A stretch of 64,000 nucleotides of DNA from Escherichia phage PNJ1902: sequence record OK254197.1; one strand, written 5' to 3'. The translations under genes were made by a program, and so were the position numbers. The notes under the pieces were generated by a model, which saw only the letters and a list, made by a program, of their open reading frames with translations, was not told where the DNA came from and searched no databases. Numbering within the stretch: the first letter of the stretch is position 1; every line of letters begins with the position of its first letter. Shown in pieces: positions 4,943-64,000 of this stretch.

Positions 4943-6319
4943 ATGACTATTGATATTAATAAGCTGAAAGAAGAACTTGGTCTGGGTGATCTGGCTAAAT
5001 CTCTGGAAGGTCTGACCGCTGCTCAGAAAGCTGCTGAAGCTGAACGTATGCGTAAAGAGCAGGAAGAAAAAGAACTGGCTCGTATGAATGATCTGGTTTC
5101 TAAAGCAGTTGGCGAAGATCGTCAGAAACTGGAACAAGCTCTGGAACTGGTTAAGTCCCTTGATGAAAAATCTAAAAAGAGTGCAGAACTGTTTGCACAG
5201 ACTGTAGAAAAACAGCAGGAAACTATTGTTGGTCTTCAGGACGAAATCAAATCTCTGCTAGCAGCTCGTGAAGGACGTTCCTTCGTTGGTGATAGTGTAG
5301 CTAAAGCACTGTATGGTACTCAAGAAAACTTTGAAGACGAAGTGGAGAAACTGGTTCTTCTGTCCTACGTGATGGAAAAAGGTGTATTTGATACTGAACA
5401 TGGCCAGAGACACCTGAAAGCTGTAAACCAGTCCTCTTCAGTAGAAGTTTCTAGTGAAAGCTATGAAACTATTTTCTCTCAGCGTATTATTCGTGATCTG
5501 CAGAAAGAACTGGTAGTTGGTGCACTGTTTGAAGAATTGCCGATGTCCAGCAAAATTCTTACTATGCTGGTTGAACCAGATGCTGGTAAAGCTACTTGGG
5601 TAGATGCTGCTACTTACGGTACTGATGCTACTACTGGTGATGAAGTTAAAGGCGCTCTTAAAGAGATCAGCTTCAAAACTTACAAACTGGCTGCTAAATC
5701 CTTTATCACTGATGAAACTGAAGAAGATGCAATCTTCTCTCTGCTGCCTCTGCTGCGTAAACGTCTGATTGAAGCACATGCTGTTTCTATCGAAGAAGCG
5801 TTTATGACTGGTGATGGTTCCGGTAAGCCGAAAGGCCTGTTGACTCTTGCTAGCGAAGATGGTGCTAAAGTTACTACTGAAGCTAAAGCTGATGGTTCTG
5901 TTCTGGTAACTGCTAAAACTATCTCTAAACTGCGTCGTAAACTGGGCCGTCATGGTCTGAAACTGAGCAAACTGGTACTGATTGTATCTATGGATGCTTA
6001 TTACGATCTGCTGGAAGATGAAGAATGGCAGGATGTTGCACAGGTTGGTAACGATGCTGTTAAACTGCAAGGTCAGGTTGGTCGTATTTATGGTCTGCCG
6101 GTTGTAGTTTCTGAATACTTCCCGGCTAAAGCAGTAGATAAAGAGTTCGCAGTTATTGTTTATAAAGATAACTTCGTAATGCCGCGTCAGCGTGCTGTTA
6201 CTGTTGAACGTGAGCGCCAAGCTGGTAAACAGCGTGACGCGTACTACGTCACTCAGCGTGTTAACCTGCAACGTTACTTTGCAAATGGCGTTGTATCCGG
6301 TGCTTACGCTGCATCTTAA
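4943..6319 (+). CDS. Major capsid protein precursor (pb8-like, HK97 fold with N-terminal scaffolding domain)
   Basis: 458 aa; N-terminal coiled-coil-like delta domain MTIDINKLKEELGLGDLAKSLEGL... recognised as T5 major head protein; codon usage is host-optimal (CTG/CGT/GGT rich). Confidence 0.95.
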   Translation: MTIDINKLKEELGLGDLAKSLEGLTAAQKAAEAERMRKEQEEKELARMNDLVSKAVGEDRQKLEQALELVKSLDEKSKKSAELFAQTVEKQQETIVGLQDEIKSLLAAREGRSFVGDSVAKALYGTQENFEDEVEKLVLLSYVMEKGVFDTEHGQRHLKAVNQSSSVEVSSESYETIFSQRIIRDLQKELVVGALFEELPMSSKILTMLVEPDAGKATWVDAATYGTDATTGDEVKGALKEISFKTYKLAAKSFITDETEEDAIFSLLPLLRKRLIEAHAVSIEEAFMTGDGSGKPKGLLTLASEDGAKVTTEAKADGSVLVTAKTISKLRRKLGRHGLKLSKLVLIVSMDAYYDLLEDEEWQDVAQVGNDAVKLQGQVGRIYGLPVVVSEYFPAKAVDKEFAVIVYKDNFVMPRQRAVTVERERQAGKQRDAYYVTQRVNLQRYFANGVVSGAYAAS

Positions 6320-21149: not shown

Positions 21150-23839
21150 TGGCAGTAACTACTAAAATTATTGTGCAACAAATACTAAATATAGATGATA
21201 CGAAAGCTACTGCTAGTAAATTTCCTAGATACACAGTAACTCTTGGAAATTCTATTAGCTCTATTACTGCTAATGAGTTAGTATCCTCTATAGATGCCGC
21301 TGCTAAGTCTGCCGCGGCTGCAAAAGATTCTGAAATAGCTGCTAAGACTTCAGAGCTTAATGCTAAGAATTCTGAACAGGAAGCTGCGATTTCCGCGGAA
21401 GCTTCTGAAGCATCGGCTACCCAATCAGCTACCTCTGCTACTCAGTCGGCAACGTCAGCCAATAAGTCTGCAGAATCCGCTGCCGCAGCTAAAACATCCG
21501 AGACTAACTCGAAGACTAGTGAAGCTAATGCAAAGACTAGCGAAACTAATGCAAAGACAAGTGAAACTAACGCTAACGCATCAGCTGCTGTTGCAAAAAT
21601 TAGTGAGACTAATGCAAAGACAAGTGAGACTAATGCAGCTCAATCAGCTGTTGCTGCAAAACTTAGCGAGGGTAGTGCAAAGGTCAGTGAGACTAATGCA
21701 GCTCAATCAGCTGCTGATTCTAGCGGTTTTAGGAATGAGGCGGAAATATTCTCTGGGCAAGCTGCTGCATCAGCAGCTGATGCAAAAACCTCTGAAACTA
21801 ATGCAAAAGCCTCTGAGACAAAAGCTAAGGCTAGTGAAACTAATGCTGCAGGGTCTGCAACTTCCGCCAACCAATCTGTAACTACTATTCAAGGACTTAA
21901 ATCAGATGTTGAACAGTTAAAATCTGATACCCAAGCCATTAAAAATAGTGCTGTAACAGAGACAACAGCTTTAAAAGCAGATGTTGAACAGTTAAAATCT
22001 GATACCCAAGCCATTAAAAATAGTGCTGTAACAGAGACAACAGCTTTAAAAGCAGATGTTGAGCAATTAAAAACAGATACACAAGGTATTAAGGATAGCG
22101 CGGTATCTGAGACAACAACTTTAAAAGACCAAGCTGCTGCTTCTGCTACACAAGCGGGTAATAGTGCTGTTGAGGCTGGGCAACAAGCTAGCAATGCTGC
22201 TAGTAGCGCACAAAGCGCATCTACCTACGCTGGACGTGCAGAAGTGGCTGCTGGAAAAGCTGAAGGTATTATTGGTAAATCATTACTAAAAGAAAATAAT
22301 CTTTCGGATCTTTTTAACGTAGAAATCTCCAGAAAAAATATTCGTGTAGACAGGTTAGAGCAGTATCCTAATGAAACTGTGTTATTCTCTCCCGGAAGAG
22401 GAAAATACCTAACAATAAGTGAATCGTCATGGGGTGTTTATTCAACGGAAGAAGGTAATGTTGGATTTATTCCACTTCCTATATCTTCAGGTGGTACTGG
22501 CGCCGTTAATATAACTGCCGCTAAGAAAAATCTGGAGATTGCATCATTCAAAAGTGCAGACGAACAAAGTTTAATGTACTCCCCTGATACTTCCAAATAT
22601 GCAATTTTTATAAAGGATAATGGCGATTGGGGTTGCCTTACAGTGTCTGACGGAGAAAGACATCCTTTAGCTATCAACGCTGGCGGTACAGGTGCAACAA
22701 CGCCAGATGGAGTAAGGCACAATTTAGGGCTTGCGACAAATCATATTCCTGTGTTCTTGGGTGTACATCTTGATGGAAACAACGGTGAAAACTCCGGCAT
22801 TCTTTACCTTAGAAACAAGAACGCAGAAGGTGTGCAACTTTCATACTCAAGGATCTACAATGAAATTCTAGGTGGTACTGCTTATGCAACAATACAGGTA
22901 ACAAGAGAAGGTGGAGACACAAATTATTATCAATTTGACGAAAGCGGAAACGCCATAAATTACAATACAATAGCAATTGGTAGAGGCATTATAAATTCAC
23001 TTGGGACTAATTCGTTAGCTATAGGTGATAGCCGCACTGGATTTAAGCAAGGTGGTAACGGAGTATTGCAGGTTTTTTGTAATGGTACAAATGTTGCATC
23101 ATTTGATCATCAAAACCTTCATCTTAACGGTCTTTTAAACATATGGCCTATTGATAATAATGCAAATGGCATTAGAGTTTCAGGATCTAGAACTGGTGGC
23201 GGCAATGCTCTAATTGGCGGTCAAGTATCTGGAGGTGCTTTTGTTGATTGGAGGGACCGAGCGGCTGGTCTTCTTGTTGAGTTGCCAAGCGATGGTGCAG
23301 CATCAAACGTCTTTAAGGCCGTTCGGTGGGGTTATGATTGGGTTGCTGGTCTTGATGTTGTCAGATTTAACACTGGAGCTTGCGAGGCTCGTTTTAATGT
23401 AAGGGGTGCGATTTACTCATTTAATGAAGCTGGTTACGCCTCATGTGTTCAATGGGTCAGTACGTCAGATATTAGACTGAAAGCAAACTTGAAGGAGATT
23501 AAGAGCGCTAGAGAAAAAGTGAAGTCAATCAAGGGTTACACTTACTTTAAGCGCAGTAATCTTTATGAAGATGAACATTCTGTATATTCGGAGGAGGCTG
23601 GTGTAATCGCTCAAGATGTGCAAACAGTTCTGCCGGAAGCGGTTTACAAGGTTTCAGATTCTGAATATTTAGGTGTTAGCTATGGCGGGGTTACTGCTCT
23701 TTTGGTTAACGCATTCAACGAAATGAGCGATCAAGTTGACAAGCAACAAGAGGAGATCGAAACACTGAAATCTGAAATTGCAGATCTTAAGGCGGCGGTA
23801 GCGGCGTTACTCAACAAACCAACAACGCTGGAAAGTTAA
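21149..23839 (+). CDS. L-shaped (side) tail fibre protein with C-terminal intramolecular chaperone domain
   Basis: 896 aa; N-terminal repeat-rich stalk; C-terminal ...DIRLKANLKEIKSAREKVKSIKGYTY...GVIAQDVQTVLPEAV... resembles the autoproteolytic chaperone of tail fibres and endosialidases. Confidence 0.85.
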   Translation: MAVTTKIIVQQILNIDDTKATASKFPRYTVTLGNSISSITANELVSSIDAAAKSAAAAKDSEIAAKTSELNAKNSEQEAAISAEASEASATQSATSATQSATSANKSAESAAAAKTSETNSKTSEANAKTSETNAKTSETNANASAAVAKISETNAKTSETNAAQSAVAAKLSEGSAKVSETNAAQSAADSSGFRNEAEIFSGQAAASAADAKTSETNAKASETKAKASETNAAGSATSANQSVTTIQGLKSDVEQLKSDTQAIKNSAVTETTALKADVEQLKSDTQAIKNSAVTETTALKADVEQLKTDTQGIKDSAVSETTTLKDQAAASATQAGNSAVEAGQQASNAASSAQSASTYAGRAEVAAGKAEGIIGKSLLKENNLSDLFNVEISRKNIRVDRLEQYPNETVLFSPGRGKYLTISESSWGVYSTEEGNVGFIPLPISSGGTGAVNITAAKKNLEIASFKSADEQSLMYSPDTSKYAIFIKDNGDWGCLTVSDGERHPLAINAGGTGATTPDGVRHNLGLATNHIPVFLGVHLDGNNGENSGILYLRNKNAEGVQLSYSRIYNEILGGTAYATIQVTREGGDTNYYQFDESGNAINYNTIAIGRGIINSLGTNSLAIGDSRTGFKQGGNGVLQVFCNGTNVASFDHQNLHLNGLLNIWPIDNNANGIRVSGSRTGGGNALIGGQVSGGAFVDWRDRAAGLLVELPSDGAASNVFKAVRWGYDWVAGLDVVRFNTGACEARFNVRGAIYSFNEAGYASCVQWVSTSDIRLKANLKEIKSAREKVKSIKGYTYFKRSNLYEDEHSVYSEEAGVIAQDVQTVLPEAVYKVSDSEYLGVSYGGVTALLVNAFNEMSDQVDKQQEEIETLKSEIADLKAAVAALLNKPTTLES
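21490..21860 (+). repeat. Imperfect 21-nt (7-aa, TSETNAK-type) tandem repeats within tail fibre gene
   Basis: Repeated ACTAATGCAAAGAC(A/T)AGTGA(A/G) units encoding ...KTSETNAKTSETNAKTSETNA... Confidence 0.8.
21898..22125 (+). repeat. Three tandem copies of a 75-bp (25-aa) unit within tail fibre gene
   Basis: ATGTTGAACA recurs at 21906 and 21981 (75 bp apart), third diverged copy at about 22056; encodes LKADVEQLKSDTQAIKNSAVTETTA x3. Confidence 0.85.
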
Positions 23840-29117: not shown

Positions 29118-29891
29118 TTAGTCGTCCAGATCGCTTGCAGCTTCTGTGTCAATACCTTTCTGGGAACCTGCATTGCTATTACCAGATTTGGCATCATCAT
29201 CTTTATTCTCACGACCCTCCATGAAGGCTAGAATTGCTTCTTTCTGCTCTTCATAGGTAGGAACCGGATAGGTTTGTTCCAGAGAAGGAACTTTTTCGAA
29301 CTTAATGATGTCGCCATCTTCATCACACATAGCTTCACCGATCAGATCTACATCCGCAGCATACTGCTTGGATTCCGCACTGTTAGGATCTTGCAGCTTA
29401 ATCTGGAACTGCATAGCAGCAATCTGCTGTACATCATACTCAGTATCGAAACCTTTACCTTTTTTCTCGATAGAAATATCAATATCAAACGGAGTTGCCA
29501 GACTCAACTGCTTCATGATAGACTGGATGCCTTTCAGAATAGTAGCCTTGACTTCCATTACTTTCAGTTTGTTATCAGAACGGTCGATAACAAAAGCGAT
29601 ATAGTTTTTCTTCGGTTTCAGCGGAACACGATTACCATCTTTATCCAGCTCTTTCTCGAAGAAGCCCATCTCATGAACCGGATCAGCTTTACCACGAACA
29701 AAGCTCTCTTTGTCACGGTTAAAACGGAGACATTCGAAAGGAGCTGCGTTACCATCTTTATTAGTCAGCCAATAGACATAACGTGGAAGAACACCAGAAA
29801 CGATACGGACACGAGTGATACCGTTGTTGAACTTCAGGAATTCGATTTTATCGTTAGAACCGCCAGTAGTTTCGCCCCAAGACTTAGCCAT
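29118..29891 (-). CDS. D11-like protein; possible ssDNA-binding protein (acidic C-terminal tail)
   Basis: 257 aa; RBS AGAGGA; C-terminal ...DTEAASDLDD acidic tail; host-optimal codon usage. Confidence 0.5.
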   Translation of the reverse strand: MAKSWGETTGGSNDKIEFLKFNNGITRVRIVSGVLPRYVYWLTNKDGNAAPFECLRFNRDKESFVRGKADPVHEMGFFEKELDKDGNRVPLKPKKNYIAFVIDRSDNKLKVMEVKATILKGIQSIMKQLSLATPFDIDISIEKKGKGFDTEYDVQQIAAMQFQIKLQDPNSAESKQYAADVDLIGEAMCDEDGDIIKFEKVPSLEQTYPVPTYEEQKEAILAFMEGRENKDDDAKSGNSNAGSQKGIDTEAASDLDD

Positions 29892-34856: not shown

Positions 34857-34886
34857 ATTATACCAAATCTTTAAGCGATTCAGCAA
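34857..34886 (-). promoter_or_regulatory. Early promoter for DNA polymerase gene
   Basis: TTGCTG - 18 bp - TATAAT overlapping the 3' end of the primase ORF. Confidence 0.5.
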
Positions 34887-35748
34887 CTAAAATTTCAATA
34901 CGTTTTGCTAACATATCAATTTCATCTTTGTTTAAATCACCTGGATCTTTGCCTTCAGGCAGGAGAAAGTTAGCAACTACAGGTGTTAAACGCGTTTTTG
35001 TACGAATTAGCTTGGCCAACGCTTGTGCAGCTTTATTACCAGAAGCATCATTATCTAGTAAGATAACAACAACTTTTACACCAGCAATAATATAAGGACT
35101 GAACTTATCTGCAATGTTATCTGAAGTGAACTGATGTGTACCAAAGCAGCAAGAAGCATAGTCTATACCATTATCCTCTAGGTTCAGCATATCAAAGATA
35201 CCTTCAACTAGAATAAGAACTGGAGTATTATATCGTACAGGGAAAATCGGTGGTGAAACTTGTTTTGGTTTTACTAAGTATTTAGGAGGGGCAGAACTGT
35301 TTATAGAACGACCCAAAAATAGGATATTGCGTCCAACAGCATCTGTGATTGGGAATACAATTCTGCCTTCCCAGTCTGCTTGGTGTTGGAAAGCAAAATA
35401 TTTCTTCAAGGTCTTAGAACTTATACCTCGGAAATCACCTTCGAAAAGGTAAGCAGATTCAGGAATTGCAAGATTTGTAGATCCATTCCTAATCTCTGAA
35501 ATCTTTTTACGTACCTGCGATAGTCTTGGGGACTGTCGGTACTGAGTCTCATTAAAATAATGGTAAATGCTCGGTATACCTTTACCGAAGCCACAACTCA
35601 AGCAGTGCATAATACCTGTTTCAGGATCAATACGCAAACTTGGGTGTTTATCGTCATGATCTGGATTGAGACAACAGATGAGGATGTCCCCACCTGTGTC
35701 TTTATATTCAATGCCTTTCAGATCAAGTAGTTCTGTTATTCTACTCAT
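34858..35748 (-). CDS. DNA primase (DnaG-like, zinc finger + TOPRIM)
   Basis: 296 aa; zinc motif CCLNPDH...HCLSCGFGKG; TOPRIM-like LVEGIFDMLNL and ILLDNDASGNKAA. Confidence 0.8.
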   Translation of the reverse strand: MSRITELLDLKGIEYKDTGGDILICCLNPDHDDKHPSLRIDPETGIMHCLSCGFGKGIPSIYHYFNETQYRQSPRLSQVRKKISEIRNGSTNLAIPESAYLFEGDFRGISSKTLKKYFAFQHQADWEGRIVFPITDAVGRNILFLGRSINSSAPPKYLVKPKQVSPPIFPVRYNTPVLILVEGIFDMLNLEDNGIDYASCCFGTHQFTSDNIADKFSPYIIAGVKVVVILLDNDASGNKAAQALAKLIRTKTRLTPVVANFLLPEGKDPGDLNKDEIDMLAKRIEILVAESLKDLV

Positions 35749-37217
35749 ATATCGCTGGCCTGTTCACCTGTTGAATTTTCAGTTTTGTCTTTCTTAGCAC
35801 GTTTAGGTTGAGCTGGCTTATCCTTCTCAATAGGGATAACGAACTCAGCTTCCATTTGAGATATATCTTCCATTGCTAGGTTGGTAGTGTTATCCATTCG
35901 CAGAGTTTCCCAGTTCATTTTAGGCATAAACTTCACGCTATCAGAAGAACGAGTCTTAACGAAGTCAAACATAATAGCACCTTGACCATTATCAGCTTTT
36001 GCAGCATTAAGATTAGCAGCCATGTCAGCGGAATCAAGAATCCCCTTTGACATACGTGTTCTACCGTCTTGATCGATCTGGTAAGGAGCTACACCAGCCA
36101 CGTTATGTTTCTGGCAGATAGATTTGAAAGACGAGCTAACAACCATCTGTTCTTTCCAGTCATACATATCAATGGTTTTAGAGTCTGGAAGTCGGGTTTG
36201 GTTAATATAGTCCAGTAAAGCTACTGTAACTTTATCTCCATATCTAGCAACTAATTTATTTAGTTCTACGTCAACTGTTGTAATAGACAGCTCAGGGTCA
36301 TAAACAATAATCATAGGAGTATGTAGTTCATATCCCTCTATTAGCTTACTCTCCATATCGTAGAAATCGCTCATCTTAGCCATTGTGTACTGTTTAACGA
36401 AGCTATCGAAAAGCTCTTCACCTCCATTAAACATTCTAGCTCTAGTTCTGGCCAATCTCAACAGAGCTGCACCTTCTAGAGTATTATTACGCATTGCTAA
36501 TGCTGATACACCAGCTAACATGGCTAGATTACGTCTAAATACTTCATGTTCTTTCATCTCAATTGAGAAGTATGGAGCAATATCTCCATTCAAATATTGC
36601 TGAACCTGTATGTTTGAACAGATAATGGATTTACCAGTACCACGCCAACCACCAAGCAGTAACGTTTCTGTGCGAGCTAAACCAATTTGAGCGTCGAACT
36701 CATTACAAATACCAAGAGCGATTAAGTTCAGTTTGGTATCTTCTTCTCTCTGGAAAATACGCATGTTATCTGCGTTGAATACTTTTCCAGTATTCGTTAC
36801 TTTCTCTTCTAATTTTAAGTGAAGGGAGGCAACTCGGTTGAGAATTTCTCCCTGATCCAGCATTGTTAAATCTTGAAGCACGTCTGTTTCTAGAAGCTTC
36901 AGGAATAAATCCTGCGTATATTCGGCTTCTAGGACTTCAAGTGCCTGTTCCATGCTCACTTCTGGAATTTGAGTGTTAGCTAAGACGACTAGAGCTTGAG
37001 AAAGGCGGGCGTTCCTATTAGCTTCAAGCATAAGTGCGTCAATGGACGGCATTGTGTTATATTTTTTATAATAATTCTGGACGGCTTGGTAAATTGAGGA
37101 GAAAGCGTCATTAAAATGATCTTTATGCAGTTTTGAGAATGTTTCCAATGCTATTTGCTTCTGTTCGGAAGCTAGAAGCATCTTCAACACTACAGCTTGC
37201 ACGTTAAACAAGGTCAT
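35745..37217 (-). CDS. DnaB-like replicative helicase
   Basis: Walker A GGWRGTGKS followed by FSIEM; start placed at internal ATG (MTLFNV...) preceded by AAGGAG, because a terminator hairpin overlaps the longer ORF. Confidence 0.75.
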   Translation of the reverse strand: MTLFNVQAVVLKMLLASEQKQIALETFSKLHKDHFNDAFSSIYQAVQNYYKKYNTMPSIDALMLEANRNARLSQALVVLANTQIPEVSMEQALEVLEAEYTQDLFLKLLETDVLQDLTMLDQGEILNRVASLHLKLEEKVTNTGKVFNADNMRIFQREEDTKLNLIALGICNEFDAQIGLARTETLLLGGWRGTGKSIICSNIQVQQYLNGDIAPYFSIEMKEHEVFRRNLAMLAGVSALAMRNNTLEGAALLRLARTRARMFNGGEELFDSFVKQYTMAKMSDFYDMESKLIEGYELHTPMIIVYDPELSITTVDVELNKLVARYGDKVTVALLDYINQTRLPDSKTIDMYDWKEQMVVSSSFKSICQKHNVAGVAPYQIDQDGRTRMSKGILDSADMAANLNAAKADNGQGAIMFDFVKTRSSDSVKFMPKMNWETLRMDNTTNLAMEDISQMEAEFVIPIEKDKPAQPKRAKKDKTENSTGEQASDI

Positions 37218-37243
37218 TCTCCTTTGCACGCTTTCGTGCCTTC

Positions 37244-37281
37244 TAAATGCAAAAAGGGGAAGGAGCATAGCCCCCTCCCCT
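37244..37281 (-). terminator. Rho-independent terminator (minus strand) after DNA-binding protein gene
   Basis: GGGGAGGG/CCTTCCCC hairpin followed by TTTTTGCATTT on minus strand. Confidence 0.5.
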
Positions 37282-37299
37282 TAGGTTTAATTTACCAGA

Positions 37300-38067
37300 T
37301 TATTCAGCAGCCGCAGCTTTTGCATCCAGTTTAGCACGCTTAGCGGCACCATCATAGTCCTTAGCAACCAGACCACGACGAGACAGCATAGATTTAACAC
37401 CGCGCTCAGACTTACCAGTTTTCTCAGCGATCTCAGCAACAGTCATGTTAACCAGATCCAGACCTTCTAACAGATCTTCACGAGTTTTAGCACTTGAAGT
37501 TTCCTGTACCGGCATAGCAGCGATACGACCTTCACGAAGCAGGCTCAGAGCTTTACCACGGATCTGCTTGATATTACGACCGAAGTGAGCAGCGATAGCT
37601 TCAATAGTAGCACCAGCAACAACCTGATTAACAAAATCAGTTTCTTCATCCGGAGTAAAGGAACGAACAGCGGCAGCTTTTTCGGTTGGCTTAACAGAAG
37701 CGGTCATTTCCAGACTCAGGATCTTACCCTGTACCTGTTTAGCACCGAACTGACCACCAGCTACAGCAGCAGCGATTTCAGCATAGGTATACTGACCAGC
37801 ATGAGCGTTCAGGAAATCAACCAGTTCAGCTTCCTGCTCAGGAGTCCACGGGGATTTCTGTACTTCGTTAGCTTTTTGTACTTCAAAACCTTCTTTACGC
37901 AGTTTAGAGCCAACAGAGCGAGCAGTAACATCTTTGCCAGTTTCAGCAGCCAGTTCAGCAGCGATAGCAGCTACTTGTTCTTGAGAGATTACAGCAACAC
38001 CCAGAGCAGTGGCTTTTGCTTTCAGAGACTCAGTTACACCTTCTACGTTCCAGTTCAGTTTAGACAT
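37300..38067 (-). CDS. Putative DNA-binding protein with four tandem HTH-like modules
   Basis: 255 aa; four internal repeats of about 35 aa (e.g. ...IAAELAAETGKDVTARSVGSKLRKEG... / ...IEAIAAHFGRNIKQIRGKALSLLREG...); host-optimal codon usage. Confidence 0.5.
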   Translation of the reverse strand: MSKLNWNVEGVTESLKAKATALGVAVISQEQVAAIAAELAAETGKDVTARSVGSKLRKEGFEVQKANEVQKSPWTPEQEAELVDFLNAHAGQYTYAEIAAAVAGGQFGAKQVQGKILSLEMTASVKPTEKAAAVRSFTPDEETDFVNQVVAGATIEAIAAHFGRNIKQIRGKALSLLREGRIAAMPVQETSSAKTREDLLEGLDLVNMTVAEIAEKTGKSERGVKSMLSRRGLVAKDYDGAAKRAKLDAKAAAAE

Positions 38068-38842
38068 TATTATTTTTCTCCAATAGTTCTTTAATCGACA
38101 GGATTTCTATCCCATTCGTTTCGGCTTTCTTATAAGATGAGGAAGAACGTTTTGATTCATCCTCACAGATTAGGTATTTGACGTCTTTAGTAACGGATTT
38201 CTTAACCGTATACCCTAGACTTTCTAAATAGTTTGTTGCATCCGTTCTATTTGCAAAATCTTGCAAAGATCCGGTAATACATACCGCGATTCCTTTTGGC
38301 TGGGCAACTAATTCATCTGTAATGATGATATTAGCTTTTGCACCTCTGATACCTGTTGAGAATTTCCACGGTAGTTCGATAACATCCTTGCCTTGTGGGG
38401 AATTTAGCCAGGCTTTATAGTTTTCTCCAGCCTTACCGTCAGCCTTCACATCGTGGAAGCTAGTGCAATTTTGGGATAATTTCTTTGCTGCAACCTCTCC
38501 AATTAGAGGGATTCCTAAAGAACCGAGAACTGAACCAAAGTCAATGTCTCCGCGAACTTTAGTATTTAATTCGCTAATTAACTTAGCGGCAACCTTGCTA
38601 CCCACGGCTCTAACCAAATCTTCTTCGGTTAGGTAAAATAGTTCTGAAATCTTCGTCAGCTCCAGCTTCTCAATAGTTTTTGGGCCAAAGCCCTTTAACT
38701 TCATTTTTGAACAGAAGTTCTCAATTAACTTACTTGATTGCGCTGGACAGTTGGACTTATTCCGACAGAATAATTGTCCGTTGACAAGATCTAGCTTAGA
38801 ACCACAAGAGGGACATTGTGTTGGAATTTCGATTTTCATCAA
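38060..38842 (-). CDS. NAD-dependent DNA ligase, C-terminal part (Zn finger, HhH, BRCT)
   Basis: 260 aa; CPSCGSKL...CRNKSNC zinc finger, HhH-like GIPLIGEVAAKKL, BRCT-like C-terminus. Confidence 0.8.
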   Translation of the reverse strand: MMKIEIPTQCPSCGSKLDLVNGQLFCRNKSNCPAQSSKLIENFCSKMKLKGFGPKTIEKLELTKISELFYLTEEDLVRAVGSKVAAKLISELNTKVRGDIDFGSVLGSLGIPLIGEVAAKKLSQNCTSFHDVKADGKAGENYKAWLNSPQGKDVIELPWKFSTGIRGAKANIIITDELVAQPKGIAVCITGSLQDFANRTDATNYLESLGYTVKKSVTKDVKYLICEDESKRSSSSYKKAETNGIEILSIKELLEKNNNV

Positions 38843-38869: not shown

Positions 38870-38898
38870 ATTATAGCAAGTATTTAAGCATTTAGCAA
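38870..38898 (-). promoter_or_regulatory. Early promoter within ligase spacer
   Basis: TTGCTA - 17 bp - TATAAT then ATTTATATAAATT, followed by RBS AAGGAA. Confidence 0.6.
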
Positions 38899-38962
38899 CT
38901 ACAATTTTAACTAACTTTGCTTACCCTCGCCATAACTTTCTATCCCTCAACTGAATGATAAT

Positions 38963-38991
38963 AGTATATACCTAAGCGGCGAAAATGTCAA
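38963..38991 (-). promoter_or_regulatory. Second promoter within ligase spacer
   Basis: TTGACA - 17 bp - TATACT. Confidence 0.4.
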
Positions 38992-39041: not shown

Positions 39042-40013
39042 TTAATCGTATACTCGCTCTACGATGCACGGGATTACACCACCAGCACGAATTACTCGAA
39101 TCTGGCAACCGATCTCTAGATCGAGAGAGTTAATATAATCAACGTTATTAAGAGTCGCTTTAACAATTGTAGCATCATCAATAATTACCGGTTCGAAATA
39201 ACCAACTGGAGTTACTTTACCAGAAGCCCCTACCTGCCATTCAACTTTAGTAAGAGTTGTAATCTCGCCTTCTTCATCCTCTTTAATAGCGAATGCTCCA
39301 CGAGGAAATTTATTAGTCCAGCCTTCACGGAAGAATTTGTTGTTGTCATTAATACGAACAACTTTACCATCCGTCGGAATCCATTTAAAGAAGGAACGCA
39401 CATTAACAACTGTTAAGAAGTCCTCATTCTCTAGCCAGAGCATATCTTTTAAATACGATTCTGTAATACCTACAGATTCAGCAGAACACTGGATACCGTA
39501 TGCAACGAAGATTAGACCACCTTCTCCGATACGTTGTACGAAATCATCACTATCTTTGAGGTTAATAGCACCAGAGGCAAAGTTACGTTTATTTTCTACT
39601 TCTTTTGTAATTAGAACTTCACCAGTGATTTGAGTAGGTACTTTTTGGGAAATCTTTTTAGGGATGTTCAGCAATCTTACGTTGCTTGTGACATCATTCC
39701 CTAGAATGCCATTACCACGAGTTAGTGCTTGAACAAATTCGCCATTAATATATAACAGAGAAATCGCACAACCATCTAACTTATCAGTTTCTACCTGACC
39801 TAATGGATTAAACGGAGGTTTATCTCCACGATTATAATAAACTTTCTGTAAAGAATACATACGATACAGATGTGGAATATCTCCCTTAGGCCCAATCTCT
39901 TCTTCTAACGGAAATCTTTTAATCAGACGATCATATTCTTCGTCAGAGATTAAAGACATGCCTTGATAATATGCTTCTTGACAGCGTTTAATAAATTCTT
40001 TTACATTAGTCAT
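39042..40013 (-). CDS. NAD-dependent DNA ligase, N-terminal part (adenylation + OB domain)
   Basis: 323 aa; KxDG adenylation motif (ETDKLDGCAIS), NAD-ligase-like N-terminus. Confidence 0.8.
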   Translation of the reverse strand: MTNVKEFIKRCQEAYYQGMSLISDEEYDRLIKRFPLEEEIGPKGDIPHLYRMYSLQKVYYNRGDKPPFNPLGQVETDKLDGCAISLLYINGEFVQALTRGNGILGNDVTSNVRLLNIPKKISQKVPTQITGEVLITKEVENKRNFASGAINLKDSDDFVQRIGEGGLIFVAYGIQCSAESVGITESYLKDMLWLENEDFLTVVNVRSFFKWIPTDGKVVRINDNNKFFREGWTNKFPRGAFAIKEDEEGEITTLTKVEWQVGASGKVTPVGYFEPVIIDDATIVKATLNNVDYINSLDLEIGCQIRVIRAGGVIPCIVERVYD

Positions 40014-40084: not shown

Positions 40085-40117
40085 AAGAAAAAGCCAAGAA
40101 CTAGGCATTCTTGGCTT
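40085..40117 (-). terminator. Rho-independent terminator (minus strand)
   Basis: AGCCAAGAA-loop-TTCTTGGCT hairpin followed by TTTTTCTTT on minus strand. Confidence 0.55.
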
Positions 40118-40409
40118 TGAGTTCTTCAGCTCGTTTCTGTACTTCATGTAAAACCTCAGATTCACTAAGAATCTGTGTAAACGCATAGAAAAGCTGTGAT
40201 GTTGTTTCTAGGGTGTAAGGAAAAGAGAAGCCAGATTTCGTTGGAAACCATTCATCATTAATATCAAGAAGCCAGTAACGAATACCCATGTATAGATTCC
40301 CACGAAATTCAGATACTGTTAATCTTACTTGTTCTCCCTCCTTCTCCCAGAGTATGATGGACTGGTCATCAACGTGTCCTTCATAGTTTTGATTTACCTG
40401 TTCGCTCAT
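40101..40409 (-). CDS. Hypothetical protein
   Basis: 102 aa ORF, acidic. Confidence 0.5.
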   Translation of the reverse strand: MSEQVNQNYEGHVDDQSIILWEKEGEQVRLTVSEFRGNLYMGIRYWLLDINDEWFPTKSGFSFPYTLETTSQLFYAFTQILSESEVLHEVQKRAEELKAKNA

Positions 40410-40459: not shown

Positions 40460-40756
40460 TTATCGGCCTACTGGAGAAGCACGATCTAACTCTGATTGGA
40501 GGCTAGTCACACGACGGACTTTCTCGACAGGAATAAAACGGAAGCTATCATTAGTACGAGAGAAGACAAGGATCTCATCATCTTTCGCTTTACGAATACG
40601 TTCACGTTTAATACGCTCAGCCAGATATTTATCTTGGGCTGGATCAAATTCCATCGTACCCTGAAGGTACGTGGTTCCTTTCTGACGAAGTTTCTCGTAA
40701 TGAAGATAAAACTCACCAAATTTTTCACATTGTGCGATAATTTCAGCTTTGGTCAT
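40460..40756 (-). CDS. Hypothetical protein
   Basis: 98 aa ORF. Confidence 0.5.
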   Translation of the reverse strand: MTKAEIIAQCEKFGEFYLHYEKLRQKGTTYLQGTMEFDPAQDKYLAERIKRERIRKAKDDEILVFSRTNDSFRFIPVEKVRRVTSLQSELDRASPVGR

Positions 40757-40792: not shown

Positions 40793-41203
40793 TTACTTAG
40801 TGATAGCTCGGATTGCTTCTGCCAGATGAGCGGCTGCTTTACCGGTCAGTTTGTCGATAATTGCATCATCCAGAAAATCTGGTGCTAGGCCAGCATCAGA
40901 GAATGCTGAACGAAGATCGGCATGAGCTTGGGCTTTGGAAGTACGAGAACCACCAGAAGCTTTTTCTCCAGTAGATGCGCTAGATTTAGAAGCAGAGCCA
41001 GCAGCTTTCTTGATATACAAACCTGCTTTAGTCAGCTTCATACGAAAACCGTTCGGAGTTACACCATTTTCCTGGGCAATTTCGCTAACAATTTCCATGC
41101 TAACACCCGGACGTTCATCCTCTGGGAATTGCTCCATACGAGCAACGTATTCGGAAGACATTTTTTCGAACAGTTCATCAGTCCACTGAGTTGGAGTAGT
41201 CAT
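40793..41203 (-). CDS. Hypothetical protein with one HTH-like module and low-complexity Ser/Ala-rich region
   Basis: 136 aa; ...EIVSEIAQENGVTPNGFRMKLTKAGL... resembles the modules in the 37300-38067 protein. Confidence 0.5.
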   Translation of the reverse strand: MTTPTQWTDELFEKMSSEYVARMEQFPEDERPGVSMEIVSEIAQENGVTPNGFRMKLTKAGLYIKKAAGSASKSSASTGEKASGGSRTSKAQAHADLRSAFSDAGLAPDFLDDAIIDKLTGKAAAHLAEAIRAITK

Positions 41204-41309: not shown

Positions 41310-41564
41310 CTACACATCTAGCTCAACAATCTCCCAATCATCCGCTAGAGCTTCTTCTAGAGTAAGGTTTACTTGACGGATAAGTGGGGATTCCATACCG
41401 TTCTCCCACACATGTTCAGTCACTGTACCCTGCTCTACGTTAAATTCTAAAACCACTGTAAAGTGTTTATTATTTTCCCAGCAATCTCGCTGGAGATATT
41501 TTACGTCCCCAGCTTTCAGCAAATCTGTTAGCTTACTCACGGCGTTTTCCTTTTTCTTTATCAA
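41310..41564 (-). CDS. Hypothetical protein
   Basis: 84 aa ORF. Confidence 0.45.
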   Translation of the reverse strand: MIKKKENAVSKLTDLLKAGDVKYLQRDCWENNKHFTVVLEFNVEQGTVTEHVWENGMESPLIRQVNLTLEEALADDWEIVELDV

Positions 41565-42237
41565 ATTTCAAGGCAGCCTTAACAGCTTCATTAATTAATG
41601 AAATTACTTCTTCACGAGTCCACTTGTACCCTAGAGATTTTACGTCAACCCCTAATTTTTCCAGATGTTTAACAGAAGCCAGCTCGTAATTCATATAATG
41701 GACGTTCTGTTGTTTGCCTTCTGATAGAAGCCATACACGATAGCAACCAACAGGATTATCCATTGCTTTTTTGATTTCACCAATACACTGGTATCCAGGA
41801 ACCCAAACAAGCTCACCAACTGCAAATTCTTCTGCTACAGCATCATCAGGAATAATTGGAGGATTCAATGGATCTACAATATCGTTCAAACGAAGTAGAG
41901 CACCATATCGTTCCAGAACAGATTTAACCATTGCTACAGAGCGGTAATTACGATCGGCAATTTCTTCGAAAGAATCACCAGATAAATACTGCTCAATAAC
42001 GTTAGCTAACTCAATGCCTTCAATGAGTGTGCCACGTTTCTTTTTCTTCATTTCGGCAACTTGAATCTGGCGGTCTTGCCATTCTTCAATCATCCTTTCC
42101 ATAGTTGGATTGGATGATACGCCGAGCATTTCACATGCTGCTTTCTTAGTACCACCGTTCTCCAGATGCTCTATAACCTTTTTAAAGACTTCATCCGGGA
42201 TTTCATGGATATGTTTCTTTCTACGAGAACCAGCCAT
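41533..42237 (-). CDS. Putative HTH DNA-binding protein (possible regulator)
   Basis: 234 aa; N-terminal HTH-like GGTKKAACEMLGVSSNPTMERMI; immediately downstream of a PN25-like promoter. Confidence 0.55.
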   Translation of the reverse strand: MAGSRRKKHIHEIPDEVFKKVIEHLENGGTKKAACEMLGVSSNPTMERMIEEWQDRQIQVAEMKKKKRGTLIEGIELANVIEQYLSGDSFEEIADRNYRSVAMVKSVLERYGALLRLNDIVDPLNPPIIPDDAVAEEFAVGELVWVPGYQCIGEIKKAMDNPVGCYRVWLLSEGKQQNVHYMNYELASVKHLEKLGVDVKSLGYKWTREEVISLINEAVKAALKFDKEKGKRRE

Positions 42238-42268
42238 ATTTAAACTCCTCTCTCAAATTTATGAATCT

Positions 42269-42297
42269 ATTATACAGAAAAATTTTCCTGAAAGCAA
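42269..42297 (-). promoter_or_regulatory. Strong early promoter, near-identical to the classical T5 PN25 promoter
   Basis: Minus strand reads AAAATTTATTTGCTTTCAGGAAAATTTTTCTGTATAATAGATTCATAAATTTGAGAGAGGAG: A-rich UP region, TTGCTT, 17 bp, TATAAT. Confidence 0.8.
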
Positions 42298-42305
42298 ATA
42301 AATTT

Positions 42306-42548
42306 TTACGATTCCTTGAGCAAAGAAGCAAGTTCAGCATAGACTTTATCTAACTCAAAGCCGATGCGAAGAGACACGTTTGTTTTCCGTTGTTTAAGTA
42401 ACCACTCGGATATGTTAGGGATGCCAGCTAATCTATGTGGTACCACCCTACATAGCTTCTCCGAAGTGTCGTAAACAGGAACTTTACGCTCTTTTACTGG
42501 GAACTTCCTTGTTTCCCATTTTTTATTCTTCACTGTCATTTCTAGCAC
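42306..42548 (-). CDS. Hypothetical protein
   Basis: 80 aa ORF. Confidence 0.45.
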   Translation of the reverse strand: MLEMTVKNKKWETRKFPVKERKVPVYDTSEKLCRVVPHRLAGIPNISEWLLKQRKTNVSLRIGFELDKVYAELASLLKES

Positions 42549-45312
42549 CTAGCTCTGCCATTGCTTCATCATGCATATGTTTCTCCTCATCAGTCATAAA
42601 CTTATATGGGATTGGCATACACTCGATTTTACAATAGGTTCTGTACCAGTCTACAATATTCTCCGTGTTCATATCCTTACCAATACCCATCATACCAAGA
42701 TACATTCTCGCATATTTTGGGTTAGCACTCTGACCTGTTTTAAGGAAGAAATCTTTCTTCTTACCTTTCAGAGCTTCTATGAATGGTTTGATAGTGACAT
42801 TTGAACACTTCTTAATATCTTCCCAGAACATCTCGTGCATTTTATGGAAGAATGCCGCTCGATCATTCGGTTTATCTTTGATATATTGTTCAACGTGCTC
42901 AACTGTTACATCTTTAATAGACTCAAGATGATAGTAGCGAACAAGAAGTAGTTTAGCCTCATACGCATCTGCATGGCGTGGAGCACAATAATCAGGAGTT
43001 GAATACAAAATGGCTTTGATTCGCTCTTCCGTATACTCTTTTCCTGCACCTTCGATAGTTCCCCAGCTTTCACTGAAAATATCAATAGTTGCACCCTGAT
43101 CAAGCAAGTAATAACGTAAGGTACTAGTATAGTTTCTAGATTCCAGCTCTCTACGACGTGCGTATAATTGCTGTGCTAACTCCAGCCAACCTTCATCAAT
43201 GTTATATTGTTCAGAACCTGCGGAGAATCCACTCGTAGATTTATCAATAAAATAATAAATGTTCTGAGCGCCACGGTCGCGCCTGATTGCTTGGAAACGC
43301 ATGTTTGGCGCTTGGTTACTGGTTCTAGTAATAACGAATACGTTATCAAAGTAGTTGAAGTCAACGCCACTCGTTACGGATGGACTACATAATAAGCAAT
43401 CAATTTGTTGATCAATTAGCTCATTAGTTGTGTAATCCAGAATACGTCGAATATCTACATCAGACGTAGAATTTGAGTGGATTTCCTTAACTAGGGCACC
43501 TGTATTACGACGTAATGCCATACCCTTCTCATTCAGTTCATCCGGCCCACAGTCAGATACTAGGATAGATTTCTCACCCATCTCTAGAGAAGTCTGAAGT
43601 GCAACCCAAATACTGGATTCATCCGGGAACTCATAAGCATGAGCTTTTGACAGCATCTTACGGTGATGGTTGTAAAATGCAACCGGTTTATCAAAATCAA
43701 TTAGAGAACCGTAGGCTTCAATCGTCTCAGCACTAATATCACCATCAGATAAGATTACAGTTTTAGCTGTCATGAGGATGTCACGTAGAACTTGAATACA
43801 TTCGCGACGTTGTTTAACAACGGGGGCGAATAATAGATCATTCATTACAGCGTCACATTCATCAATAAAAATGGTGTCTATTTGACCAATAAAACTCTTG
43901 AACTTATGCAAAGAGTGAATAGTTGTGGACATACGGTCAATAGCGCCACGCTTAAAATTAAGCATATCTACAGACTTATCATATTGTCCTGCACTAAATT
44001 TCTTAGCATTTGAAGATACCAGCGCTCTAGTATTTGTAACTGCTAAAAAGTTGCCAGGAAGAACACCTGCGTCCAGCCATTTAGTTACTGCCGTAGTTTT
44101 ACCAGTACCAAGACTTGCCTTAACAAATGTTATATGGCCTTTTGGGGGCACAATGTTAATCTTCAGGTATGGAACTTCTGGTGGAGAATCCACTTCTAAT
44201 TTCTTGAGTGGAACACCTTTCAGATTTAATGGAATCTCACGTTTAGAATTATTAACAAACGCTTTGAGAGCCTGCTTGCGACCGTTATTAAAGTAATCTT
44301 GAATATTACGACTATTATCTTTAGTTGCAATATATTCAGATAAAGCGGGTTTAATCTCACGTTCTAGCCATGCGAAATCAACACCATCCTCTAATGCTCT
44401 ATGGTATAGTTTGGGGATAATACGCAAGTACACCCCATCCTCAGCTTCTTCCAATTCGCTGATGGTTTCTTCTACTTTATCAGACGCGATCTTTTTGCCT
44501 TTAATTTGGTCAAGTAAGGAATAGAATTCCTCTTTAAACTCTCCTCTAGTTGTTTCATAATCAACCAGATTATTGGGCAAATTTACCTTCGAACCTTTAA
44601 CATACACCAGACGTGGCTTACTCTCCGCTTTAAACGGATCTACAATACCATCGCTAAATAAAGGGTCGGCAAAATAGTGAAGCTGGACAGATGAATAATA
44701 AGCTAAGTCGGCAATGTCAAAACCGAATTTTTGCTTACTACTATCGTTGATGGATGTAAATAAGAACTTTAGCTGACCCTGAGTTACCTTGACGTTAGAT
44801 TCTAGCATTAAGTGCATTCGGATACCTGGTTTTAGGCCAGCCGAAGATGATGCATGAGCAATAAACCCTGCATCAAGAGGAAACATGTCCTCACTAATAC
44901 TATTCAACATCTTAATAATGTGGCGGGCCATGCCTACAAGATTAAACTTGTCGTACCCACCGGTATCTAGGATACCATCCACGTCCATAGCAATAATATT
45001 GCTGGGGTTGGATACATTAAAGTTACCTTTCTTACGCCGCACGTTATTTTTAGGTGCAAGACATCGACCTCGTACCGCAACGATATGAGGATCAGACGTT
45101 AAACGTCTCATAAGTGGTAACATTTCGGCAAGGCTTTGCGGGTCATGCTCTTCTATTACATCAAATTTGAAGGGCATAGAGGCTGGTTTACCTTCTGGAT
45201 GCTCTTTCGAGAATCGCTTGGCAAAGGTATAATCCTCCGCTTTGATTTCTCGCCAAATACCTGTTGCTAAATCACGAGAAAATCCGGCGTGACCTTGAAG
45301 AATAGAAAACAC
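42523..45312 (-). CDS. Large P-loop NTPase, putative replication-associated helicase / origin-binding-type protein; GTG start
   Basis: 929 aa; Walker A ASLGTGKTT and Walker B IFIDECD; RBS AGGAG 7 nt upstream of GTG. Confidence 0.75.
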   Translation of the reverse strand: MFSILQGHAGFSRDLATGIWREIKAEDYTFAKRFSKEHPEGKPASMPFKFDVIEEHDPQSLAEMLPLMRRLTSDPHIVAVRGRCLAPKNNVRRKKGNFNVSNPSNIIAMDVDGILDTGGYDKFNLVGMARHIIKMLNSISEDMFPLDAGFIAHASSSAGLKPGIRMHLMLESNVKVTQGQLKFLFTSINDSSKQKFGFDIADLAYYSSVQLHYFADPLFSDGIVDPFKAESKPRLVYVKGSKVNLPNNLVDYETTRGEFKEEFYSLLDQIKGKKIASDKVEETISELEEAEDGVYLRIIPKLYHRALEDGVDFAWLEREIKPALSEYIATKDNSRNIQDYFNNGRKQALKAFVNNSKREIPLNLKGVPLKKLEVDSPPEVPYLKINIVPPKGHITFVKASLGTGKTTAVTKWLDAGVLPGNFLAVTNTRALVSSNAKKFSAGQYDKSVDMLNFKRGAIDRMSTTIHSLHKFKSFIGQIDTIFIDECDAVMNDLLFAPVVKQRRECIQVLRDILMTAKTVILSDGDISAETIEAYGSLIDFDKPVAFYNHHRKMLSKAHAYEFPDESSIWVALQTSLEMGEKSILVSDCGPDELNEKGMALRRNTGALVKEIHSNSTSDVDIRRILDYTTNELIDQQIDCLLCSPSVTSGVDFNYFDNVFVITRTSNQAPNMRFQAIRRDRGAQNIYYFIDKSTSGFSAGSEQYNIDEGWLELAQQLYARRRELESRNYTSTLRYYLLDQGATIDIFSESWGTIEGAGKEYTEERIKAILYSTPDYCAPRHADAYEAKLLLVRYYHLESIKDVTVEHVEQYIKDKPNDRAAFFHKMHEMFWEDIKKCSNVTIKPFIEALKGKKKDFFLKTGQSANPKYARMYLGMMGIGKDMNTENIVDWYRTYCKIECMPIPYKFMTDEEKHMHDEAMAELGARNDSEE

Positions 45313-58201: not shown

Positions 58202-58221
58202 TAAATAAATTAAAAATTCAC

Positions 58222-58250
58222 TTGCTTAAAGCCCTCTAATTTAGTATAAT
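58222..58250 (+). promoter_or_regulatory. Early promoter flanked by a 9-bp inverted repeat
   Basis: TTGCTT - 17 bp - TATAAT; AAAGCCCTC at 58228-58236 and GAGGGCTTT at 58268-58276. Confidence 0.6.
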
Positions 58251-58277
58251 ATTCGTATTGAAAGTGAGGAGGGCTTT

Positions 58278-63271: not shown

Positions 63272-63714
63272 TGGAAGAGAATATTTTAGATGTTTTGCGT
63301 AGAGCTTTGCAGGATTCTAAGTTTAATGGTTCTGATAAAGAAGTCGCTAAAAGCTACCAGACCATAATCGGGGATCTTCAGCGTATTGATAAAGATTTCA
63401 TCACTTCTGAACAATTTGTGTCTTATCTCAAAGCTCAACTAAAAAGCATTAACCAGATGAAAGCTAAACTTCATGGTCAAGATCTTGATAGTTATAGCTT
63501 GCAGTCTGCTCAGTATGAGTACATTCTAAATAAATGGTTGCAGGAGTATCTGCCTCCTCAGTTATCTGATACTGAGATTCGTAAATACTTTGCAGAATTA
63601 GTTAAGCTAAACCCTGGAATTACAAAGGGTATGCTGATGAAAGCGATTAAGGAAGAATTTCCTGGGCGTTATGATGGCGGTACTGCTGCTCAGATTGCTG
63701 GCGAATTTAATTAA
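63271..63714 (+). CDS. GatB/YqeY-domain-like protein
   Basis: 147 aa; C-terminal ...PGITKGMLMKAIKEEFPGRYDGGTAAQIAGE resembles the YqeY family. Confidence 0.45.
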   Translation: MEENILDVLRRALQDSKFNGSDKEVAKSYQTIIGDLQRIDKDFITSEQFVSYLKAQLKSINQMKAKLHGQDLDSYSLQSAQYEYILNKWLQEYLPPQLSDTEIRKYFAELVKLNPGITKGMLMKAIKEEFPGRYDGGTAAQIAGEFN

Positions 63715-63722
63715 AAATTTAT

Positions 63723-63751
63723 TTGCTAAATGCCTTTAAATTCTGTATAAT
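63723..63751 (+). promoter_or_regulatory. Early promoter firing into ORF-free region at window end
   Basis: TTGCTA - 17 bp - TATAAT then ATATTCATAAATTAGGG; almost identical to the promoters at 59017 and 60874. Confidence 0.65.
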
Positions 63752-64000
63752 ATATTCATAAATTAGGGAACAGCGAGCCGATTACGCTGAGTGCAGAATC
63801 CCAACCGGAGCGCATTGAATAGAGTCGGTGGGTTAGTTGTAAAACTAGTACACAGGGGGCGGCAATCCCGGTTAGTGGCTAGAACGTGTAAAATGAGGCG
63901 TCTGAAACCTCTCCCCTAAACTCTTCTCTAATTTATAAATAGTGGGGTGTGGAAATCACTTATGTAGTAACACTGCCGTCCTAGTATAATTGGTATTATC

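Follow-up and report, generated by a model that had tools for sequence, protein, structure and literature searches.

The D5 protein of a T5-like phage is predicted to carry four helix-turn-helix domains of two types and may coat phage DNA

Several well-known DNA-binding proteins carry more than one three-helix helix-turn-helix (HTH) domain in a single chain. Drosophila Pipsqueak has four Psq HTH repeats and Sulfolobus Cbp1 is a tandem array, and the R repeats of c-Myb and B-Myb and the Tc3 and Mos1 transposases also place multiple such domains in one protein. Phage phi29 p6 is a very abundant genome-coating protein with roles in both replication, whose initiation it activates, and transcription, whose early-late switch it modulates (PMC4974454). 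In phage T5, the mechanism of the early-to-late switch is unexplained, and all promoter classes use the sigma-70 holoenzyme (PMC7472727). Few genes are known on which this switch depends, and D5 is among them. Here we describe the D5 gene in a stretch of 64,000 nucleotides from Escherichia phage PNJ1902 (OK254197.1), referred to below as the window. The gene lies at 37300..38067 on the minus strand and encodes a duplex-DNA-binding early protein of T5-like phages (255 amino acids, 27.0 kDa, isoelectric point [pI] 6.8). We predict that the protein is a string of four HTH domains, and we propose, with a probability of roughly 0.6, that it is an abundant duplex-DNA coat protein making four HTH contacts per monomer, on which both replication and the early-late switch depend.

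D5 is like the tandem-HTH proteins above in having multiple three-helix HTHs per chain, which in those proteins each set a recognition helix on the duplex, and its weak profile or fold matches include MYB21, B-MYB, Tc3, Mos1, a psq-type viral protein, and the Cbp1 structure. However, Myb, Tc3/Mos1, Pipsqueak, and Cbp1 read specific sequences, D5 mixes two module types, and the window D5 scored below the family threshold for each of the tandem-HTH families (e.g., 17.6 versus a gathering cutoff of 24.4 bits for the Myb/SANT repeat, PF00249). The likeness to phi29 p6 is one of proposed mechanism, with coating by D5 itself a proposal. Unlike D5, a monomer of four HTH domains, p6 is small and oligomerizes, and we neither found nor expect a sequence or fold relation between the two. 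The closest relative of the outer D5 modules is the N-terminal domain of another T5 early protein, D3, whose gene belongs to the early replication block as well, at a distance of 2.7 kb.

The window protein is identical to T5 D5 (T5.118, YP_006946) at 254 of 255 residues over equal length, the sole difference being A25D. It also matched PHROG 323 ("transcriptional regulator, D5-like") over residues 1-253 (E=1.5e-71). Judged by its sequence, the open reading frame (ORF) is the known and classically studied T5 D5 protein and not a new kind of system. The initial annotation of this DNA had proposed a multi-HTH early protein with a genome-coating or transcription-switch role, comparable to the DNA-binding proteins of T5-type phages; our data support this, and the protein is T5 D5 itself. 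The T5 reference record annotates T5.118 as a DNA-binding protein on which DNA replication and late transcription depend and which has a part in shutting off expression, and PMC12630848 also traces duplex-DNA binding to McCorquodale 1979. What we add is an explicit four-domain, two-type map of D5, the paralogy of the D3 N-terminal domain with the first and fourth D5 modules, the variation of module number among D5 relatives, and the codon-bias ranking of D5.

We named the four modules M1 to M4 and examined whether they are real repeats. D5 self-BLAST gave no internal match, so profile methods were required to detect the modules. Module subalignments were cut from an alignment of 54 homologues (down to 50% identity) and compared profile to profile with hhalign. 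M2 and M3 matched with P=3.4e-9 and a probability of 96%. The remaining pairs gave P values of 9e-5 (M3-M4), 3e-4 (M1-M4), 4e-4 (M1-M3), 6e-4 (M1-M2), and 1e-2 (M2-M4). Genuine module pairs scored 16 to 44, compared to 7.6 to 12.7 for reversed profiles and a maximum of 15.0 for column shuffles (ten per pair). As negative controls, three non-HTH neighbor proteins compared with the module profiles gave P values of 0.03 to 0.8, while the second HTH of a 234-amino-acid neighbor gave 7e-4. We read P values of about 1e-3 to 1e-4 as the level of generic HTH likeness, and the M2-M3 match and the matches of the D3 N-terminal domain to M1 and M4 as specific paralogies. Successive units of D5 are thus significantly similar in profile comparisons.

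Single-sequence comparisons were far less sensitive. By Smith-Waterman alignment with shuffles, M2-M3 was the only significant pair among the modules (z=7.0, 0 of 500 shuffles), and four of the six pairs gave z values of about 2 or less. The D3 N terminus scored z=8.9 against M4 and z=5.5 against M1. A hidden Markov model (HMM) built from M2 and M3 detected M1 and M4 at E values of only about 0.02 to 0.03, implying that M1 and M4 differ in subtype from M2 and M3. From these comparisons, M2 and M3 clearly appear to have arisen by internal duplication. Internal repetition is therefore borne out for all pairs at the profile level and for M2-M3 alone at the level of single sequences. The empty self-BLAST, the four low z values, and the weak HMM detection are what one would expect if the repeats were a chance impression of Ala/Lys/Glu-rich helical composition around one real HTH. 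Against this, every profile-profile pair beat the reversed, column-shuffled, and non-HTH neighbor controls.

Structure prediction argued against chance similarity as well. AlphaFold2 (AF2), run on the 54-sequence alignment, modeled D5 with a predicted local distance difference test (pLDDT) score of 94.2 as four separate three-helix units, with pLDDT values of >90, followed by a basic C-terminal helix. AF2, the HTH Pfam models, and the conservation of helix 3 agree on a predicted three-helix (homeodomain-like) HTH fold. M1 (residues 1-68; 37864..38067, minus strand, as are all coordinates of D5 parts) is a putative winged-type HTH, which we call type A, with helices at 11-22, 29-43, and 49-58. 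Its third helix is ARSVGSKLRK, with R50, K55, R57, and K58 conserved, and the module matched the engrailed homeodomain variant 1y66 (E=9e-4). M2 (residues 69-130; 37678..37863) is Myb/homeodomain-like, or type B, with helices at 76-88, 95-101, and 109-118 and the sequence W74-T-P-E-Q-E ... KQVQGKILSL. Its paralogue M3 (residues 131-190; 37498..37677), also type B, has helices at 139-150, 155-162, and 166-178 and reads F137-T-P-D-E-E ... KQIRGKALSL. M4 (residues 191-239; 37351..37497) is a putative winged HTH of type A. In the model it has a short helix at 205-207, helices at 210-217 and 221-231, and a beta hairpin at 234-239, and its third helix, ERGVKSMLSRR, precedes this hairpin. The remaining residues, 240-255 (GAAKRAKLDAKAAAAE; 37303..37350), form the C-terminal basic helix, modeled at 240-254.

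The two types differ in motif as well as in predicted fold. Over their full length, M2 and M3 have in common the motif [quoted passage not shown], and "GK.LS" is invariant or nearly so in their joint alignment. The common motif of M1, M4, and the D3 N-terminal domain is "h-x-x-I-A ... G ... K-L-x-[KR]-x-G-h", after which comes a strand. When we looked for the wing itself, AF2 placed strands at 234-235 and 238-239 in M4 and only single-residue bridges in M1. Taken together, D5 is predicted to consist of four HTH domains of two types, with winged-type modules at the ends and Myb/homeodomain-like modules in the middle. The initial annotation had counted four repeats of about 35 residues in this protein. 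The number four holds, but the unit is about 60 residues (55 to 65), because the 35-residue stretch covers the helix 2-turn-helix 3 core and the whole three-helix domain is longer. The repeat pattern given there fits loosely; the modules are of two types and not four equal repeats.

Each of the four regions was also matched by a different HTH Pfam model, which again speaks against chance composition: HTH_33 at 32-68, Myb at 71-100, HTH_23 at 151-184, and Sigma70_r4_2 at 204-230. The last of these scored above its cutoff (28.7 versus 25.7 bits). Among the 54 homologues, Sigma70_r4_2 matched 48, HTH_23 matched 30, and Myb matched 15, the last with E values of <=0.01, down to 8.6e-7. The joint M2/M3 profile had weak matches in the PDB to MYB21, B-MYB, TraR, Timeless, and GcrA, and the M4 and M1 profiles found nothing useful among PDB sequences beyond engrailed homeodomain variants.

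The Sigma70_r4_2 match raises the alternative that D5 acts in transcription at specific sites, as a factor or a sigma appropriator, with M4 at the -35 element or the RNA polymerase beta-flap and the other HTHs on adjacent DNA, switching early to late promoters. Besides the above-cutoff match and its retention in 48 of 54 homologues, this would suit the annotated requirement of D5 for late transcription, the unexplained T5 switch with one holoenzyme for all promoter classes (PMC7472727), and the presence of GcrA and LuxR/TraR-type regulators among the weak matches. However, the match spans only profile positions 23-49 of 54, i.e., the HTH core. M4 thus resembles sigma-70 region 4 in its HTH core, while D5 lacks region 2 and any sigma signature (TIGR02937, 12.6 bits versus a cutoff of 42.9). 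In addition, the phage proteins detected in RNA polymerase preparations from T5-infected cells were A1, T5.026, and the head protein and did not include D5 (PMC7472727). We consider this alternative unlikely. The narrower assignment of D5 as a sigma factor was rejected on the missing region 2 match and the TIGR02937 score.

We next turned to module number in relatives. A search of 1.84 billion representative proteins returned 572 D5 relatives, 77 of them at E<=1e-30. Among full-length relatives, about 48 clusters (at 50% identity) preserve the order M1-M2-M3-M4. In a 309-amino-acid relative (P0173), the middle type is present three times, giving five modules, and a divergent group of 280 to 294 amino acids has five modules in other arrangements. 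In long relatives, up to ten stretches match the D5 profile, and several of these proteins carry matches to M2/M3-type modules. Such variation in module number independently supports the modules as real units of evolution, and it counts further against the chance reading, which we regard as largely refuted and very improbable. Among the long relatives, P0309 (599 amino acids) consists of a long tandem HTH array with 8 stretches matching the D5 profile, and P0299 and P0310 join a sigma-region-4-like N terminus to an HTH array.

The single-module protein identified nearby in the initial annotation proved to be D3. Its ORF (40793..41203, minus strand) encodes 136 amino acids, 134 of them identical to T5 D3 (T5.113, annotated "DNA binding protein"), and it matched PHROG 1725 "DNA binding protein" (E=4.7e-50). 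The N-terminal HTH module (residues ~1-66; 41006-41203, minus strand) is type A. It is followed by a disordered Ser/Ala/Gly linker (residues 67-86) and a conserved C-terminal three-helix domain (residues 87-136) with an invariant KLTGKAA. By hhalign, D3 residues 2-68 matched M1 residues 1-67 with P=5e-6 and the N-terminal domain matched M4 with P=7e-6 to 7e-5, which confirms the relation that had been claimed. AF2 modeled D3 with a pLDDT of 74 and helices at 9-24, 28-45, 50-59, 90-103, 113-118, and 121-135, the first three of which repeat the D5 module pattern. When the D3 model was compared with the PDB by Foldseek, the only matches were weak ones to HTH and homeodomain structures. Unlike D5, D3 has one module rather than four, and its C-terminal domain has no D5 counterpart. 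D3 is conserved alongside D5 in distant Demerecviridae: gp67 of Vibrio phage River4, a member of a different subfamily, is syntenic with D3 and shares 35% identity with it, and in this phage both D3 and D5 keep their positions in the block.

Conservation within the D5 modules points to DNA contact. Helix 3 is the most conserved helix of each module, with mean identities of 0.85, 0.86, 0.74, and 0.81 for M1 to M4, compared to 0.48 to 0.68 for helix 1 (0.48 in M1). Invariant alignment columns of D5 concentrate in the third helices. In each third helix, Lys/Arg makes up at least 80% of the residues at two to four positions, namely R50/K55/R57/K58 in M1, K110/K115 in M2, R170/K172/R178 in M3, and R222/K225/R230/R231 in M4, and K243, R244, and K246 are conserved in the C-terminal helix. 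Since a conserved Lys/Arg-bearing third helix is present in each domain, one molecule may make several duplex contacts, and we infer that all four domains contact DNA.

If D5 coats DNA, it should be abundant, and its codon usage is consistent with this. The E. coli codon adaptation of D5 was the highest of the 75 window ORFs (0.715, an approximate value; mean, 0.278; standard deviation [SD], 0.115). The effective number of codons, which does not rely on a reference set, was the lowest in the window (30.3; mean, 44.0; SD, 5.7). By both measures D5 equals or exceeds the major head protein in bias. Next in order came the genes for the major head protein, a tail fiber protein, the single-stranded DNA-binding protein (SSB), and D3; the loci grouped for codon bias were 37300-38067, 40793-41203, 29118-29891, and 4943-6319. 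Among the predicted stoichiometric DNA-binding proteins, D5 thus ranks first, with SSB and D3 near it, alongside the major head protein and far above the enzymes of the same operons. Such extreme bias is more in keeping with a DNA-coating protein of very high abundance than with a regulator that is rare and site specific. Together with the replication phenotype, it also better fits a stoichiometric DNA-binding protein than the sigma appropriator discussed above.

Published observations are in line with abundance. D5 is no virion protein of T5, yet virion preparations of phiR2-01 contained it as one of their most abundant proteins (PMC8624392). A 2026 preprint describes D5 as a 26-kDa monomer that is toxic to E. 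coli when expressed alone and that triggers retron-Kva2, its HTH fold binding the stem-loop of the multicopy single-stranded DNA (msDNA), with a root mean square deviation (RMSD) of 1.3 A to the retron winged-helix protein (bioRxiv 10.64898/2026.07.11.737809). The abundance, the toxicity, and the msDNA binding fit a protein of high abundance and general DNA affinity. The same preprint assigns D5 only "a helix-turn-helix motif" and reports the retron-escape substitutions G53D and G232D in D5 and E30Q and G85D in D3, as well as escape mutations in a gene that it names D2. On our map, G53 lies inside helix 3 of M1 and G232 just past helix 3 of M4, i.e., both fall in the predicted winged modules, and the D3 positions E30 and G85 are nearly invariant. 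The map therefore serves as a structural frame for the D5 retron trigger and for the escape mutations in D5, D3, and the preprint's D2.

Our model for D5 is as follows. D5 would be made early and in very large amounts, as a monomer in which short linkers connect four three-helix HTH domains and a basic C-terminal helix forms the end. Each domain would offer its conserved Lys/Arg-bearing third helix to the duplex, so that one molecule could make several contacts along the DNA with little sequence preference. Many molecules might then coat the phage DNA as an architectural, histone-like layer. This coat would be needed for phage DNA replication, and as it accumulates it would help to silence early promoters and permit late transcription. 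Cooperative, non-specific binding by D5 was reportedly described in papers of 1979-1983. D3 may be a smaller paralogous DNA-binding partner from the same replication block, with one M1/M4-type module and its own C-terminal domain. The identity with D5, the predicted four-domain architecture, the conservation pattern, and the codon bias are results of this analysis, while the DNA binding, the replication and late-transcription phenotypes, and the toxicity in this model come from annotation and the literature; we infer the coating, its role as a timer, and DNA contact by all four domains. With the domain map and the evidence for high expression in hand, whether D5 is a coat or a specific factor becomes directly testable.

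Several points weigh against coating. D5 as a whole is not basic (pI 6.8, with 34 Lys plus Arg versus 34 Asp plus Glu), M2 is acidic (pI 5.1), and M4 is the sole clearly basic module (pI 9.1 for residues 191-255), so M2 and M3 could serve protein contacts rather than DNA contacts. The predicted template modeling (pTM) score of the D5 model is 0.56, i.e., the domains are confident and the geometry between them is not. A Foldseek search of the PDB with the full D5 model returned nothing below E=0.08 and no solved whole-chain match, probably owing to the small size of the domains and their loose arrangement relative to one another. The codon adaptation value is approximate, as noted above. Finally, a viable T5 escaper with the D5 stop W74* has been reported (bioRxiv 10.64898/2026.07.11.737809). 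W74 is the first residue of M2, and a stop there would leave only M1, which is hard to square with an essential four-domain D5.

A stronger form of the coat model can be envisioned in which D5 is a phage "chromatin" protein. Here the four HTHs would lie over several duplex turns, the rising density of the coat on replicating T5 DNA would itself time the early-to-late switch, closing early sigma-70 promoters and freeing late ones, D3 would modulate or cap the coat, and retron-Kva2 would sense it. We regard this extension as tentative and, on balance, doubtful. If it is true, the D5 coat would be what retron-Kva2-like host defenses have learned to sense.

The genomic setting of D5 raises one further alternative. 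We found D5 homologues in 902 phage records (coverage of >=80% in 895), with hosts from enterobacteria to Vibrio, Proteus, and Aeromonas; no NCBIfam family was found for D5 or D3. DNA around D5 is about 98.5% identical to that of many T5-like Salmonella and Escherichia phages, the gene order around it on the minus strand agrees with T5 gene for gene, and on this likeness we take the window as a T5-like phage. D5 lies between ligB (38060-38842, minus strand, as are the genes that follow) and the gene for the DnaB-like helicase D6 (35745-37268), which is followed by primase (34858-35748). This place is the same in the window, T5, phage I14, and Vibrio phage River4. In River4, where D5 is 48% identical, the order ligB-D5-helicase-primase-polymerase is retained.

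Transcription of D5 probably starts upstream of ligB. A consensus scan found two sigma-70 promoter-like sites there (38870..38991, minus strand), TTGCTA-17-TATAAT (with TG) at 38898..38870 and TTGACA-17-TATACT at 38991..38963. Taken as a whole, the scan found 8 sites versus 10.5 expected from shuffled sequence and thus no excess. The T5 record annotates two promoters, P-K 28a and 28b, at the same place before ligB, and the ligB-D5 transcript is probably driven by the two sites. The ligB stop and D5 start overlap by 8 nucleotides (ATGTCTAA; 38060..38067, minus strand), making translational coupling possible. Directly 3' of D5 is a terminator-like hairpin (37254..37282, minus strand) with a 13-bp stem followed by a T run. 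It folds with -25.6 kcal/mol (z=-3.0; 0 of 200 shuffles were as good). Its 5' arm carries the Shine-Dalgarno-like AAGGGGAGGGGG, and its loop carries the annotated ATG (37268) of the D6 helicase. The hairpin sequence is the same in T5, where no terminator is annotated at that place. It could reduce read-through from the highly expressed D5 and also conceal the start of the helicase gene.

From its position between ligase and the DnaB-like helicase, primase, and polymerase genes, kept across Demerecviridae and joined to ligB by the 8-nucleotide overlap, D5 could instead be mainly a replisome accessory, e.g., a loader or recruiter of the D6 helicase or an origin- or nick-remodeling factor, with the transcription effects secondary to replication failure. 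The annotated requirement for DNA replication and the lack of an annotated helicase loader in the block would suit this role. Yet D5 showed no loader-family similarity in Pfam, PHROGs, or NCBIfam, a loader is needed catalytically and would leave a codon bias above that of the major head protein unexplained, and the strong terminator-like hairpin between D5 and the helicase gene argues for very different expression of the two. A helicase-loader role is thus suggested by gene position only, and we consider the replisome reading quite unlikely, with the coat model remaining our preferred one.

The minus-strand genes on the other side of ligB are ligA (39042-40013), a PC4-like protein (40101-40409), T5.114 (40460-40756), D3, T5.112 (41310-41564), a 234-amino-acid HTH protein (41533-42237), and a 929-amino-acid origin-binding/helicase protein (42523-45312). 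The NAD-dependent DNA ligase is encoded in two ORFs, ligA and ligB, with promoter-like sites between them, as in T5. Between ligA and D3, the product of 40101-40409 is a PC4-like (transcriptional coactivator p15) protein of the single-stranded-DNA-binding type, matching Pfam PC4 with E=8e-8 and PHROG 4053 "transcriptional regulator."

The 234-amino-acid protein has two Pfam HTH motifs and no nucleoside triphosphatase (NTPase) match. It is nevertheless named "D2 / helicase" in NC_005859 and PHROG 3611. The characterized T5 D2 bipolar helicase is the product of a 2787-bp ORF with a Walker A motif (PMC3632103), and this ORF corresponds to window 42523-45312 (minus strand). We rejected the helicase assignment for the 234-amino-acid protein on its two HTH motifs and missing NTPase match, and the label looks like a propagated error. 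The naming conflict leaves the "D2 E76Q" substitution of the preprint (bioRxiv 10.64898/2026.07.11.737809) ambiguous.

Lastly, we searched the window for repeated DNA motifs as candidate D5 operators; this returned only the known T5 promoter family and coding repeats, and it carries no weight for or against specific D5 sites. The promoter family, to which the sites upstream of ligB belong, is of the sigma-70 type and is repeated on both strands from 30253 to 63770 as AAAAATTxAxTTGCT, 17 nucleotides, and TATAATAT. Examples lie at 58203-58252, 63704-63753, and 42250-42302, and these are known strong T5 promoters. The coding repeats are in tandem on the plus strand, with 21-nucleotide units at ~21467-21884 and three 75-nucleotide units at 21899-22123, and 21467-22123 is probably a repetitive segment of a fiber-like structural protein.

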